A stretch of 40,116 nucleotides of DNA from a virus (taxonomy: Duplodnaviria; Heunggongvirae; Uroviricota; Caudoviricetes), in IMG/VR virus record IMGVR_UViG_3300042346_001601, one strand, 5' to 3'. Within the stretch, counting starts at the first letter, position 1, and each line of letters opens with the position of its first letter. This document shows positions 1 to 2,233 of this stretch, piece after piece. Under the pieces are notes generated by a model. That model had not been told where the DNA came from. It searched no databases and saw only the letters and a program-made list of their open reading frames with translations. The position numbers and the translations under genes were made by a program.

Positions 1-219
1 TTCGATGCCGGCTTCTGGCTGCAGAAACTGAAGGGAGATCTGAAGAAAGACGGTCAGGTGCTCCTGCAGCTGGCGTCCCTCTGGGATGAGCCAGGCTGGG
101 AGGAGCAGAGACAGGAGATCGAACAGAAACTCAGTCCTGAGCAGCTTCGGGCCATCAAGGCCCTAAAGACCAAATTGGTCTATGTCGATCCCTGGAAAGA
201 CTTTGACGGGATTGTCTAG
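1..219 (+). CDS. 3' end (5'-truncated by window) of an LRR-array paralogue; conserved C-terminal domain only
   Basis: Frame 1 reads FDAGFWLQKLKGDLKKDGQVLLQLASLWDEPGWEEQRQEIEQKLSPEQLRAIKALKTKLVYVDPWKDFDGIV*, near-identical to the C-termini encoded at 927-1139 and 1874-2086. Confidence 0.9.
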   Translation, partial: FDAGFWLQKLKGDLKKDGQVLLQLASLWDEPGWEEQRQEIEQKLSPEQLRAIKALKTKLVYVDPWKDFDGIV

Positions 220-220
220 A

Positions 221-228
221 GATATATA
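221..228 (+). promoter_or_regulatory. GATATATA box, putative phage late promoter
   Basis: Exact motif just upstream of ATG 234; recurs before many genes on both strands. Confidence 0.7.
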
Positions 229-233
229 AGAGC

Positions 234-1139
234 ATGCAACACCTCCAATCCTTTTCCCTGTTCGAAGCCCGAGCTTCTATTTTGACGAGCTCCAGGAAGG
301 CATTTTTGAATAGATACACTCGAGGACGCTGGTCGGTCAACCCAGAGACAGGGCTAGTGGATGTAAAGGGAAGTTTTGCTTGTGGAGGTAAAAGATTAAA
401 GAGCTTACAGGGCATCTCGTTCGGACATGTCAGTGGGAATTTCTACTGTCAAGGCAACCAACTGAACTCCCTGGCTGGGGCACCTCAGACGGTGGGTGGG
501 GATTTCTCCTGTTTCAGAAACCAGCTGACGACCCTGGTCGGAGCACCCCAGACGGTAAATGGGAGTTTCGACTGTTCCGGCAACCAGCTGACGACCCTGG
601 TCGGGTCACCTCAGACGGTGGATGGGGGTTTCTCCTGCGGCGGCAACCGGCTGACGACCCTGGTCGGGGCACCCCAGACGGTGGATGGACATTTCCTCTG
701 TTCCTACAACCAGCTGACGACCTTGGCCGGGGCACCTCAGACGGTGGGTGGGCATTTTATCTGTTCCAGCAACCAGCTGACGACCCTGGTCGGGGCACCC
801 CAGACGGTAGATGGGGATTTCTCCTGCGACTCTTTCGAAGTCCGGAGTGGGAAATGGAATCCCCAGGGCTGGGCCGAGATTCTGGCCACTGGCGATAGCA
901 AAGCCCGGAGGCTGATTGTGACCCTGTTCGATGCCGGCTTCTGGCTGCAGAAAGTGAAGGGGGATCTGAAGAAAGACGGCCAGGTGCTCCTGCAGCTGGC
1001 GTCCCTCTGGGATGAGCCAGGCTGGGAGGAGCAGAGACAGGAGATCGAACAGAGACTCAGTCCTGAGCAGCTTCGGGTCATCAAGGCCCTAAAGACCAAA
1101 TTGGACTACGTCAATCCCTGGAAGGACGGGATTGTCTAG
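234..1139 (+). CDS. Leucine-rich-repeat protein (21-aa VxGxFxCxxNxLTTLVGAPQT repeats) with leader peptide and conserved C-terminal domain
   Basis: 301 aa; six full repeats plus a partial; N-terminus MQHLQSFSLFEA; C-terminus shared with neighbours. Confidence 0.9.
   Translation: MQHLQSFSLFEARASILTSSRKAFLNRYTRGRWSVNPETGLVDVKGSFACGGKRLKSLQGISFGHVSGNFYCQGNQLNSLAGAPQTVGGDFSCFRNQLTTLVGAPQTVNGSFDCSGNQLTTLVGSPQTVDGGFSCGGNRLTTLVGAPQTVDGHFLCSYNQLTTLAGAPQTVGGHFICSSNQLTTLVGAPQTVDGDFSCDSFEVRSGKWNPQGWAEILATGDSKARRLIVTLFDAGFWLQKVKGDLKKDGQVLLQLASLWDEPGWEEQRQEIEQRLSPEQLRVIKALKTKLDYVNPWKDGIV
429..827 (+). repeat. 63-nt tandem coding repeat, 6 full units plus a partial
   Basis: CAGACGGT recurs at 486, 549, 612 and onward with a 63-nt period. 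Confidence 0.95.
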
Positions 1140-1140
1140 A

Positions 1141-1148
1141 GATATATA
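1141..1148 (+). promoter_or_regulatory. GATATATA box
   Basis: Context identical to the 221 copy (205-271 equals 1125-1191). Confidence 0.7.
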
Positions 1149-1153
1149 AGAGC

Positions 1154-2086
1154 ATGCAACACCTCCAATCCTTTTCCCTGTTCGAAGCCCGGAAGACTTC
1201 AGGCCTGACCCCCGACCAAGAGGCATTTTTGAATGACTGCACCAAAGGGCTTACCAAAGGGACCTTTTTAGGGACCTGGTCGGTCAACCGACGGACCGGT
1301 CTGGTCGATGTGGAAGGAGATTTTTACTGTAGTGGCAGCGGACTGAAGTCTCTGTCGGGCATCTCGTTCGGACATGTCAGTGGGCATTTCTGGTGTTCCC
1401 ACAACCGGCTGACGACCCTGGTCGGGGCACCCCAGACGGTGGGTGGGGGTTTCGGCTGCGACAACAACCATCTGACGACCCTGGTCGGGGCACCCCAGAC
1501 GGTGGGTGGGGGTTTCTCCTGCGGCAGAAACCAGCTGACCTCCCTGGTCGGGGCACCTCAGACGGTGGGTGGGGGTTTCAACTGCCACCAGAACCAGCTG
1601 ACTACCCTGGTCGGGGCACCCCAGACGGTGGGTGGGAGTTTCTTCTGTTACAACAACCGGCTGACCTCCCTGATCGGGGCACCCCAGACGGTGGGTGGGA
1701 CTTTCGACTGCGTCTTCAACCAGCTGACGACCCTGGCCGGGGCACCTCAGAAGGTGGGTGGGTATTTCTACTGCGACTCTTTCGCACTCCAAAAGGGGAA
1801 ATGGAATCCCCAGGGCTGGACCAAGATTCTGGCCACTGGAGATAGCAAAGCCCGGAGCCTGATTGCTCCCCTGTTCGATGCCGGCTTCTGGCTGCAGAAA
1901 CTGAAGGGAGACCTGAAGAAAGACGGTCAGGTGCTCCTGCAGCTGGCAGACCTCTGGGATAATCCAGGCTGGGAGGAGCAGAGACAGGAGATCGAACAGA
2001 GACTCAGTCCTGAGCAGCTTCGGGTCATCAAGGCCCTAAAGACCAAATTGGGCTACGTCGATCCCTGGAAGGACGGGATCGTCTAG
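1154..2086 (+). CDS. Leucine-rich-repeat protein, tandem paralogue of 234-1139
   Basis: 310 aa; same leader, repeat scaffold and C-terminal domain; different N-cap and variable repeat residues. Confidence 0.9.
   Translation: MQHLQSFSLFEARKTSGLTPDQEAFLNDCTKGLTKGTFLGTWSVNRRTGLVDVEGDFYCSGSGLKSLSGISFGHVSGHFWCSHNRLTTLVGAPQTVGGGFGCDNNHLTTLVGAPQTVGGGFSCGRNQLTSLVGAPQTVGGGFNCHQNQLTTLVGAPQTVGGSFFCYNNRLTSLIGAPQTVGGTFDCVFNQLTTLAGAPQKVGGYFYCDSFALQKGKWNPQGWTKILATGDSKARSLIAPLFDAGFWLQKLKGDLKKDGQVLLQLADLWDNPGWEEQRQEIEQRLSPEQLRVIKALKTKLGYVDPWKDGIV
1376..1774 (+). repeat. 63-nt tandem coding repeat, 6 full units plus a partial
   Basis: Units start at 1376, 1439, 1502, 1565, 1628, 1691 and 1754. Confidence 0.95.
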
Positions 2087-2137
2087 AGATATATTCGTCG
2101 GAGTACCTAAATGGGTGGTTAAGGTTTTCGACGGGGA

Positions 2138-2233
2138 ATCAAGCAGAGACCCAGTCCTGAGCAGCTTCAGACCATCAAGGGCTCAAGATTCAGACTCTTC
2201 TACGTTGATCTATGGAGGGATGTAATCTATTAA
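2138..2233 (+). pseudogene. Decayed remnant of another LRR-array C-terminus
   Basis: Reads IKQRPSPEQLQTIKGSRFRLFYVDLWRDVIY* versus IEQRLSPEQLRVIKALKTKLGYVDPWKDGIV*; no usable start; box upstream degenerated to GATATATT (2088). Confidence 0.75.

Follow-up and report, generated by a model that had tools for sequence, protein, structure and literature searches.

Genomic setting and organisation of the locus

The window analysed here is a stretch of 40,116 nt at the start of a 177-kb fragment (74% complete) of a jumbo phage genome. Positions 1-2233 contain two complete genes of 301 and 310 aa, preceded by the 3' end of another and followed by the decayed tail of a further one; all belong to one LRR family and are arranged head-to-tail on the + strand with identical 14-nt spacers (Table 1). 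The sequence-only reading of this DNA described at least three genes separated by such spacers, and the ORFs bear this out; the junction at 205-271 that it equated with 1125-1191 is indeed identical over exactly 67 nt, with identity stopping at both ends. It also noted a decayed fourth tail, which we place at 2129-2233: this segment matches the intact tail at 67/96 nt, reads ...SPEQLQTIKG...YVDLWRDVIY-stop and is preceded by stops. Immediately after the last stop, that of A2, lies a truncated junction box (GATATAT, 2088-2094), and together the truncated box and the decayed tail indicate a former fourth gene that has lost its body.

Table 1 Coordinates of the LRR family genes and associated features in the window
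Feature	Position	Strand	Basis
A0, upstream family member, 3' end (72 codons plus stop), cut by the window edge	1..219	+	5'-open ORF
14-nt spacer A0-A1, GATATATAA box at 221-229	220..233	+	junction identity, box scan
LRR gene A1, 301 aa: leader codons 1-11, N-cap, six full 21-aa LRRs, C-cap, helical tail	234..1139	+	
A1 63-bp tandem repeats, 6.2 copies	434..826	+	Tandem Repeats Finder
14-nt spacer A1-A2, GATATATAA box at 1141-1149	1140..1153	+	junction identity, box scan
LRR gene A2, 310 aa: A1-like layout, six LRRs, 24-nt N-cap insertion	1154..2086	+	
A2 63-bp tandem repeats, 6.0 copies	1401..1777	+	Tandem Repeats Finder
Scar of the lost fourth gene: truncated box, then decayed C-terminal tail	2087..2233	+	
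Diverged paralogue, 387 aa, 32% identity, normal GC 39%, leader MKNELNFNIFE	9712..10875	-	
Diverged paralogue, 396 aa	10872..12062	-	
Diverged paralogue, 318 aa, GATATATAA box, leader MKHLVPFLIFE	14219..15175	-	

Further copies, which the sequence-only reading suggested seeking upstream of the window, are found in an independent assembly. The 72 residues of A0 are 100% identical to the C-terminus of P0014, a protein whose contig carries an array of at least seven genes. A 5.7-kb NCBI contig holds a 43-aa partial ORF and five full-length called genes, the fifth of which ends with the 72 residues of A0, so that four full-length family-sized genes and the partial one lie upstream of the A0-matching gene. 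Given these extra upstream genes, the locus is probably the downstream end of a tandem array of at least eight genes. Exact look-ups of both window proteins matched no other contig.

A second array (B) of three genes lies about 116 kb from the window array, and the genome in total contains six array copies and four diverged paralogues scattered elsewhere. The near-identity of C-termini reported from sequence holds across all six array copies, whose tails (approximately 100 aa) share 91-96% nucleotide identity. Arrays A and B have exchanged parts; the closest N-cap to that of A1 is found in B3, and the closest to that of A2 in B1. The start codon of the array B copies is GTG. The arrays have a GC content of 57% (GC3 70%) versus 39% for the genome, and this high GC could reflect recent import. 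Elsewhere in the surrounding 40 kb are large LamG, PKD and DUF285 proteins that match virion-structural families. An NCLDV origin, considered in view of eukaryote-type glycosyltransferases, was rejected on the basis of a phage topoisomerase II, a split DNA polymerase, a ribonucleotide reductase and tail-fibre genes; a search for NCLDV capsid genes gave zero matches, but zero in its control genomes too.

Protein architecture and fold

Members of the family share one plan: an 11-residue leader ending in L-F-E and followed by A, an N-cap, four to nine LRRs of 21 residues, a C-cap and a conserved six-helix tail. Across 32 units of 21 aa, F4, C6, N9, L11 and L14 are invariant or nearly so, a pattern that qualifies the units as LRRs, and the corresponding period in the DNA is 63 bp. 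The first half of each unit reads F-x-C-x-x-N-x-L-x-x-L and the second half x-G-A-P-x-x-V-x-G. With Pfam LRR models the array genes remain below threshold, and one diverged paralogue matches LRR_4 (E = 7e-5). An AlphaFold2 model of A2 (pLDDT 90.8) is a curved solenoid with one strand pattern per repeat, in which residues 1-14 are disordered and outside the fold, 40-215 form the LRR solenoid and 219-300 the helical tail. All top Foldseek matches of this model are LRR proteins (probability approximately 1.0, with E-values of only about 2e-3), and the best local superpositions are with the LRR domains of SspH1 and IpaH (rmsd 2.7-2.9 over approximately 145 columns). The C-terminal tail has no Pfam match, no PDB sequence match and no usable Atlas match, and a structure search returned only generic helical-repeat matches (Z at most 5.6; E above 1).

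Two known LRR groups come close to these repeats. The IRREKO class is built on a 21-residue unit, LxxLxCxxNxLxxLDLxx(N/L/x)xx, with nested 10/11 periodicity (Matsushima et al. 2010, PMC2946307). The phage unit is also 21 residues long and its first half fits the Cys-containing subtype, but its second half is xGAPxxVxG rather than LDLxxNxx, which places it outside the class; the most fitting description is a separate LRR variant of 21 residues, the 'GAP' type. The IpaH/SspH/YopM effectors, with LRRs of 20-22 residues, resemble the phage proteins in the superpositions of the LRR domains (SspH1, IpaH), whereas the latter lack an E3-ligase or other effector domain and have their own N-cap and helical tail. 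The GC-rich LRR genes of Protochlamydia (PMC2216083) were set aside as an unrelated 28-residue class.

Variation and selection on the LRR face

Variation is concentrated at four solvent-exposed positions of the unit, 3, 5, 7 and 8, on the concave face, within the LRR strand xFxCxxN. At these hypervariable codons dN/dS is 8.3, versus 0.29 at scaffold codons, with similar dS in both (0.13 and 0.22, respectively), and the same four positions are also the most variable in 10 arrays of other phages. These comparisons show strong diversifying selection on the LRR face and conservation of the scaffold. The differences in repeat face that were noticed from sequence correspond to a hypervariable face and a variable number of 63-bp modules between constant ends. 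The accompanying claim that the N-caps diverge strongly was overstated, since they are homologous (73% nucleotide identity between A1 and A2, with the first 36 nt of the leader identical); the duplication described within the A2 N-cap is real, its 24-nt insertion containing ACCAAAGGG twice (1241-1249 and 1253-1261).

A potential source of such variation is a dedicated diversifier, either a DGR (adenine mutagenesis, AAY to NNY) or copy-choice cassette assembly of the VLR kind. The hypervariable codons are nearly all NNT or NNC, with bases 1 and 2 varying and the third fixed, as a DGR might leave them, and the layout is VLR-like. However, no match to RVT_1 was found in the 177-kb fragment (74% of the genome) or in five related records (four complete), in searches whose controls matched; with no reverse transcriptase found, the arrays are not DGRs. 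The codon pattern is also incompatible: the adenine-rich scaffold codons CAG, GCA and AAC are invariant in 31-32 of the 32 units, which adenine mutagenesis would not allow, the variable sites include codons irreconcilable with it (such as TGG, AGA and CAA), and a template-like unit with AAY at every variable position is absent from the set. Moreover, every unit is a complete gene, and two other samples carry array B with 100% identity. A DGR was accordingly rejected, and we regard a dedicated diversifier of any kind as extremely improbable.

The analogy with the VLRs of lamprey and hagfish drawn by the sequence-only reading therefore stands for protein layout and fails for programmed assembly. 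Both families possess an N-cap, a variable number of LRR modules, a hypervariable concave face, a C-cap and an invariant C-terminal part; apart from the LRR fold, their sequences are unrelated. A VLR gene is completed somatically, an incomplete germline gene being filled by copying from promoter-less cassettes that flank it, whereas each phage unit is a complete, separately expressed and inherited gene, a full ORF with box, start, leader and stop. Complete units, a lack of promoter-less cassettes and no sign of programmed assembly together identify an inherited multigene family, and the arrays amount to a heritable collection of distinct binding surfaces, all presented on the same frame. In this respect they recall the LRR genes of plant NLRs and receptor-like proteins, which lie in tandem clusters, undergo unequal crossing-over and gene conversion, and experience positive selection at the solvent-exposed x positions of xxLxLxx. 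Tandem clustering, unequal crossing-over and selection on the exposed face are common to both, whereas the plant proteins are host immune receptors with signalling domains and the phage proteins are small, viral and equipped with a virion-targeting-like tag.

Array dynamics and relatives

Relatives were retrieved from IMG/VR by alignment query; searches of the same resource with the neighbouring TPR gene or a single LRR protein returned nothing useful. IMG/VR contains 399 stretches with such arrays, from environmental jumbo-phage contigs; 209 genes were found in 72 of its loci, with arrays of up to 13 genes. The LRR type overall comprises approximately 34,000 cluster representatives at 50% identity, a figure that includes much longer proteins of other architectures. 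A nucleotide search of cultured phages gave no match, and a protein search returned only the Vibrio phages SRILMA and TDDLMA, which carry the same LRR type without the leader, together with three uncultured huge-phage records. A literature search did not find leader-tagged LRR arrays described in phages. The breadth of the family among jumbo phages, like the second array in this genome, lay beyond the view of the sequence-only reading.

That reading did propose an array that expands and contracts, and relatives confirm it. At the locus of the window array, the syntenic L117 (approximately 70% nucleotide identity) carries 5 genes. Two near-identical strains, L118 and L120, have flanks that are 99-99.9% identical and hold 2 and 1 copies, respectively, and the join lies within a 630-nt stretch, 91% identical between copies, in the shared tail. 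Similarly, in L030, whose flank is 97.4% identical, the first array B gene encodes 302 aa versus 327 aa here. New copies and new repeat numbers are thus shown to arise by ordinary homologous recombination, through unequal crossing-over both between near-identical tails and leaders and between 63-bp modules.

Repeats of this kind invite the suspicion of an assembly artefact, in which a repeat at the end of a contig is collapsed or chimeric. The window does begin within the array, arrays of this sort lie at the ends of many related contigs, and in L027 the final 220 nt switch to another paralogue. We nonetheless consider an artefact very unlikely: an NCBI assembly made independently also shows the A0-A1 layout, two other samples contain an identical array B, distant relatives hold syntenic arrays, and the copies differ from one another by 5-30%, are intact and meet at clean junctions. 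As a separate observation, the arrays break metagenome assemblies.

The upstream box and the leader

Each array gene was said to have its own putative late promoter and a capsid-targeting-like leader, and both elements recur as described. The GATATATAA box occurs 6 times in the window (expectation 0.33), each time shortly before a start codon (at a distance of 4 nt in the array genes), and also precedes many other genes of the phage. The leader has the consensus M-Q/K-H-L-Q-S-F-S-L-F-E, then A; across the family E11 is invariant and L9 and F10 nearly so, and positions 4 and 7 are hydrophobic. Gene callers often start the protein at codon 17, a TTG lying 16 codons past the ATG, and the called product then lacks the leader. 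At least 12 genes have both leader and box, several of them encoding non-LRR proteins; one 98-aa ORF starts MKTYHQFLNE, then A. Leader and box co-occur in the genome with an odds ratio of 36 (p = 1e-9), a value obtained with a regex written after the data were seen.

In phage T4, CTS residues 4 and 7 target the protein and residues 8 and 10 direct processing, and gp21 cleaves after L/I-x-E (PMC9026906). T4 IPII and IPIII (translated from AF158101) start MKTYQEFIAE, then A. Judged by sequence, the phage leader resembles the T4 CTS in pattern and length and ends in an L/I-x-E motif. A T4-type major capsid protein and head protease (Peptidase_S77) are present in 4/4 complete array-bearing relatives, and the closest complete relatives are T4-type in their head genes; genes for a gp21-type head protease and a gp23-type capsid were not found in this 74%-complete fragment.

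An alternative explanation is that the LRR proteins are made and act in the infected cell, unpackaged, as intracellular binders or decoys of host factors, and that the conserved 5' end, instead of encoding a targeting peptide, is an expression signal (promoter and start region) common to the genes. With only 4 nt between box and start codon, the first codons may be under constraint at the RNA level, and leader conservation could have a cause in translation or the mRNA. Consistent with this, the first 36 nt are identical among copies even at synonymous sites, and a search of the fragment for the head protease found none. In relatives down to approximately 45% identity, however, the leader is conserved as protein and not as DNA, lineages whose leaders are quite dissimilar nevertheless retain a short N-terminal peptide with Glu at its end, and the disordered residues 1-14 lie outside the modelled fold. 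On balance we think this explanation unlikely.

Proposed function

We lean towards regarding the array genes as members of a large, phage-specific family of small, putatively CTS-tagged LRR binders that are packed in the head and injected. By analogy with T4, a head-loading tag on each gene probably points to a varied set of putatively injected proteins. The GATATATAA box would probably be the phage's late or virion-class promoter. The leader may dock the LRR protein on the prohead scaffolding core, as the T4 CTS does, and a gp21-type head protease would then cut it after Glu at the L-x-E site; mature proteins would be packed with the DNA, injected, and bind variable host targets, plausibly defence proteins. 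Several observations count against this reading: head protease and capsid genes were not found in the 74%-complete fragment, the array B copies have GTG starts, a cultured Vibrio phage has this LRR type without the leader, called proteins often begin past the leader, and the GC of the arrays departs from that of the genome.

The T4 internal proteins IPI, IPII and IPIII provide the closest parallel. They too carry a short N-terminal tag with hydrophobic residues at 4 and 7 and L/I-x-E followed by Ala or Ser, one tag serves unrelated cargo within a genome, the loci are highly strain-variable, and an anti-defence role has been proposed. Their mature parts, in contrast, are without sequence homology to the phage proteins. 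The leader of the latter is one residue longer, and it heads a positively selected LRR family present in many copies, in tandem arrays that reach 13 genes, with packaging and cleavage putative.

Alternatively, the LRR proteins may sit on the virion exterior (tail, fibres or capsid) as alternative host-range determinants, anchored by the constant helical tail and recognising host surface receptors through the variable face. LRRs are classic surface-recognition modules, no fold is assigned to the constant tail (best Z 5.6), which could serve as an anchor, the LamG, PKD and DUF285 neighbours match virion-structural families, and diversifying selection is also typical of receptor-binding proteins. 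Yet these small proteins show no domain recognisable as one for fibres, trimerisation or baseplate attachment, the L-x-E leader is common to unrelated non-fibre proteins, and it would be unusual for one tail to use at least eight different adhesins of approximately 300 aa, each under a separate promoter. An exterior location consequently appears quite unlikely.

Implications

The arrays offer a clean natural case of copy-number change in a phage by unequal crossing-over. If the proteins are packaged and injected, the idea of T4 internal proteins would be extended from a few single-copy anti-restriction proteins to whole diversified arrays, the family would provide a natural stock of small, stable binders, already built on one common scaffold, and the strong, localised positive selection would point to fast-evolving host targets, possibly defence systems. 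It is conceivable, and here we are tentative, that T4-superfamily jumbo phages maintain an inherited, recombining LRR library, CTS-loaded and injected, in which each binder neutralises a different target in host defence or takeover. If so, such a library would be a virus-side counterpart of LRR-based immune repertoires, its diversity maintained through unequal crossing-over and positive selection on the concave face.

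Organisation of the LRR arrays and their genomic setting

The array of LRR genes that opens the window (array A) is confirmed, far above chance. Its genes lie head to tail with both spacers 14 nt long, constant tails accompany variable repeats, as in the sequence-only reading, and positions 205-271 recur unchanged at 1125-1191, a match of exactly 67 nt comprising the last codons and stop of one gene, AGATATATAAGAGC and the opening 38 nt (12 codons) of the following gene. Tandem Repeats Finder detects a period of 63 bp, with ~6 copies in each of A1 and A2. A decayed fourth tail had also been proposed near 2138-2233, and a remnant is indeed present behind stop codons, with 67/96 nt identity to the family C-terminal tail; given that a truncated box (GATATAT, 2088-2094) also follows the A2 stop, we infer that a fourth gene lost its body by deletion. 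A convergent TPR/glycosyltransferase-9-like gene ends within this tail (overlap 2190-2233), and since its product is 352 aa long versus 327 aa in the homologue from L117 (a related phage locus), the gene may have acquired its final codons from the remnant's antisense strand.

Further copies probably lie upstream of the window. On an NCBI assembly contig of 5.7 kb, one gene shares its last 72 residues with window 1-219, lies at a distance from the next gene compatible with A1, and is preceded by 4 further full-length family-sized genes and 1 partial gene. The window begins within array A, which consequently probably comprises at least eight genes. Automatic gene callers often choose an internal TTG or ATG as start (e.g. 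window 282, the TTG at A1 codon 17, and the public proteins P0014 and P0039), thereby removing the leader, so that leader-based protein-database searches undercount the family.

The window corresponds to the first part of an IMG/VR record of 177 kb, judged 74% complete; it extends 799 nt outward beyond the record start and differs from the record by a single base at 17388 (G in the window, A in the record). The genome is that of a phage, encoding topoisomerase II, a split family-B DNA polymerase and ribonucleotide reductase, together with tail-fibre-like proteins and many sugar-modifying enzymes. A second array (array B; 327, 260 and 367 aa) lies ~116 kb downstream of array A, with spacers of 13-14 nt, the same box and GTG starts, and four diverged paralogues lie outside both arrays, three of them inside the window. 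Array A (1-2086) and array B have 56-59% GC and a GC3 of ~70% in a genome of 39.4% GC, for which the paralogues (38-39%) are of normal composition; arrays of related phages exceed their flanks by 5-10 GC points in several cases, and not in others. Either import from a GC-richer phage or GC-biased conversion could account for this. Elsewhere in the window, the glycosyltransferase cluster includes GT25 and HtrL/YibB-like genes, and the cell-wall-related set comprises an L,D-transpeptidase (YkuD_2) whose N-terminus resembles a signal peptide, a zincin peptidase whose N-terminus is lipoprotein-like, and a chitinase-class-I/lysozyme-like protein.

Table. Features of the window (plain coordinates), the wider genome (G000:C1) and locus L027
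Feature	Position	Strand	Basis
A0, gene 3' end, last 72 codons	1-219	+	ORF call
A1, complete LRR gene, 301 aa	234-1139	+	ORF call
A2, complete LRR gene, 310 aa	1154-2086	+	ORF call
Decayed gene end	2129-2233	+	similarity to family C-terminal tail
TPR/glycosyltransferase-9-like gene	2190-3248	-	
Rhamnosyl O-methyltransferase-like gene	18920-20662		
Glycosyltransferase cluster	24510-29080	-	PF11397 (GlcNAc transferase), strong match, E = 9e-72
MVHNFNQFL genes	32897-33838, 34273-35472, 36561-36902	+	
Cell-wall-related genes	35497-36072, 37846-38466, 39346-40041	-	
98-aa ORF	36167-36463	+	
Array B, three LRR genes	G000:C1:116219-119116		
Capsid-like stretch within a 161-aa open frame, locus L114	G000:C1:132463-132612	-	
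Change of paralogue	L027:11792-12012		

Protein architecture

Alignment of 25 family members reveals a single plan, with a leader of 11 residues (M-[KQR]-H-[LI]-x-x-[FY]-x-L-F-E) preceding Ala/Ser, a short variable linker, the N-cap LTxxQxxFLxxYTxGTWSVNPxTGLVDV, 21-residue repeats, the C-cap CDxFxLxxGxWN and a C-terminal part that is constant inside one array and different between lineages. AlphaFold2 returns a confident model (pLDDT 90.8), with residues 1-14 disordered, an N-cap helix at 20-30, a regular solenoid at 40-215 and six helices at 219-300. Foldseek matches in the PDB are LRR proteins only, the best local fits being to SspH1 and IpaH LRR domains (rmsd 2.7-2.9, ~145 columns, 26-30% identity). 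In LRR numbering the repeat reads G-G-x-F-x-C-x-x-N-x-L-T-x-L-x-G-A-P-x-x-V, whose first half matches the Cys-containing subtype of IRREKO LRRs, whereas its second half differs. Folded separately, the C-terminal tail reaches pLDDT 83, and neither structure nor sequence searches returned a convincing relative of it.

Variation and selection

The five complete array genes contain 6, 6, 7, 4 and 9 full repeats. Over 32 repeat units, positions 3, 5, 7 and 8, which in LRR proteins generally are solvent-exposed residues of the concave sheet, have entropies of 2.6-2.8 bits, and F4, C6, N9, L11, L14, G16, P18 and Q19 show little or no variation. In ten arrays of other phages, variability again peaks at positions 3, 5, 7 and 8. 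dN/dS is 8.3 at the hypervariable codons (dS 0.13) and 0.29 at scaffold codons (dS 0.22), dS being comparable in the two classes. In variable codons bases 1 and 2 are free and the third is nearly fixed (NNT/NNC). Despite the look-alike pattern, a diversity-generating retroelement is very unlikely: neither the 177-kb fragment nor any of five related records, of which four are complete, yielded a reverse transcriptase. It is further contradicted by the invariant adenine-rich scaffold codons CAG, GCA and AAC and by TGG, AGA and CAA codons at variable sites, and no repeat unit fits as an all-AAY template. A simpler explanation is that a young, recombining scaffold is under strong positive selection.

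Array dynamics

Among array copies in this genome, C-terminal tails share 91-96% nt identity in all copies, N-caps 70-93%, and leaders are identical except in the start-codon region. The closest N-caps cross arrays (A1 with B3, A2 with B1) and best-matching repeat units frequently occur in the other array, which indicates that the arrays exchange segments. The proposed expansion and contraction is upheld by comparisons between phages. L117, syntenic with the window at ~70% nt identity and with right-hand flanking genes in common, has five family genes at the array A locus. In a related lineage with 5' gene ends almost as in this genome, L118 has two copies and L120 one, between flanks 99-99.9% identical, and the join falls in a 630-nt stretch with 91% identity between copies, a pattern characteristic of unequal crossing-over.

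Contigs of two other samples match array B at 100% identity, and in a strain with a 97.4%-identical flank the first gene of array B encodes 302 aa, not 327 aa; arrays are therefore stable in the short term and variable across strains. L027 matches this genome at 100% identity for 11.8 kb before its last 220 nt change to a different paralogue start (ATG, not GTG); the switch reflects either a strain whose array B has a different third gene or paralogues joined during assembly. This history fits an inherited family, with programmed rearrangement not indicated, such that the suggested analogy to lamprey VLRs holds for the protein plan and fails beyond it.

Leader, box and head genes

In T4, the first ten residues of IPIII are enough for encapsidation, residues 4 and 7 of the capsid-targeting sequence (CTS) serving targeting and 8 and 10 processing, and gp21 cleaves after the Glu of L/I-x-E (PMC9026906). 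The N-terminus of T4 IPII and IPIII is MKTYQEFIAE/A (translated from AF158101); the phage leader has the same pattern and is one residue longer, and its L-F-E/A is compatible with the gp21 motif. Similar leaders occur on unrelated proteins of the genome (a LysM protein and several of unknown function), and the 98-aa ORF, behind a GATATATA box, starts MKTYHQFLNE/A, a near-match to the IPII/IPIII CTS. Three genes with different bodies, one with a LysM domain, have a common leader MVHNFNQFL...(L/N)E and almost identical 35-nt upstream regions; they make up a second leader-plus-variable-cargo set.

Each array member had been credited with a putative promoter and leader, and the data agree. Leader-bearing genes tend to have a GATATATA(A/T) box 4-25 nt 5' of the start codon (odds ratio 36, p = 1e-9, with a post hoc regex and LRR copies that are not independent), and GATATATAA occurs 6 times in the window versus 0.33 expected, always just 5' of a start codon. 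The box is found on large structural-type genes and replication genes are without it, which fits, and does not prove, a putative late promoter.

All four complete array-carrying relatives encode a gp23-type capsid protein, with I-x-E motifs at its start, and a Peptidase_S77 head protease. Neither was found in the 177-kb fragment or its nearest relative, where these genes presumably lie in the missing genome parts. Within the 161-aa frame of L114, a ~50-aa stretch has 58% identity to residues 39-99 of the complete relatives' major capsid protein; the fragment has no full capsid gene.

Distribution and biological meaning

A word-based search yielded >2,300 relatives among 8,000 candidates scored, and searching 1.84 billion cluster representatives with a profile gave 34,143 matches at E <= 0.001 and 5,267 at 1e-30, counts that take in much longer proteins of the same repeat type. 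In IMG/VR, 399 stretches match; 72 loci there (contigs of 100-413 kb) contain 209 family genes by our count, most of them in arrays on one strand with up to 13 members, every lineage having its own short Glu-ending leader and constant tail. Our literature searches found no publication describing phage arrays of leader-tagged LRR genes.

T-even internal proteins are diverse anti-restriction proteins whose sole common part is the targeting sequence (PMC3012670). On the account that the data support best, the genes described here belong to a family of LRR binders that are arranged in tandem, recombine and evolve under positive selection, and this much is shown. Their T4-like leader would target them into the phage head, from which they would be delivered into the host, a proposal to which we give an even chance or slightly better.
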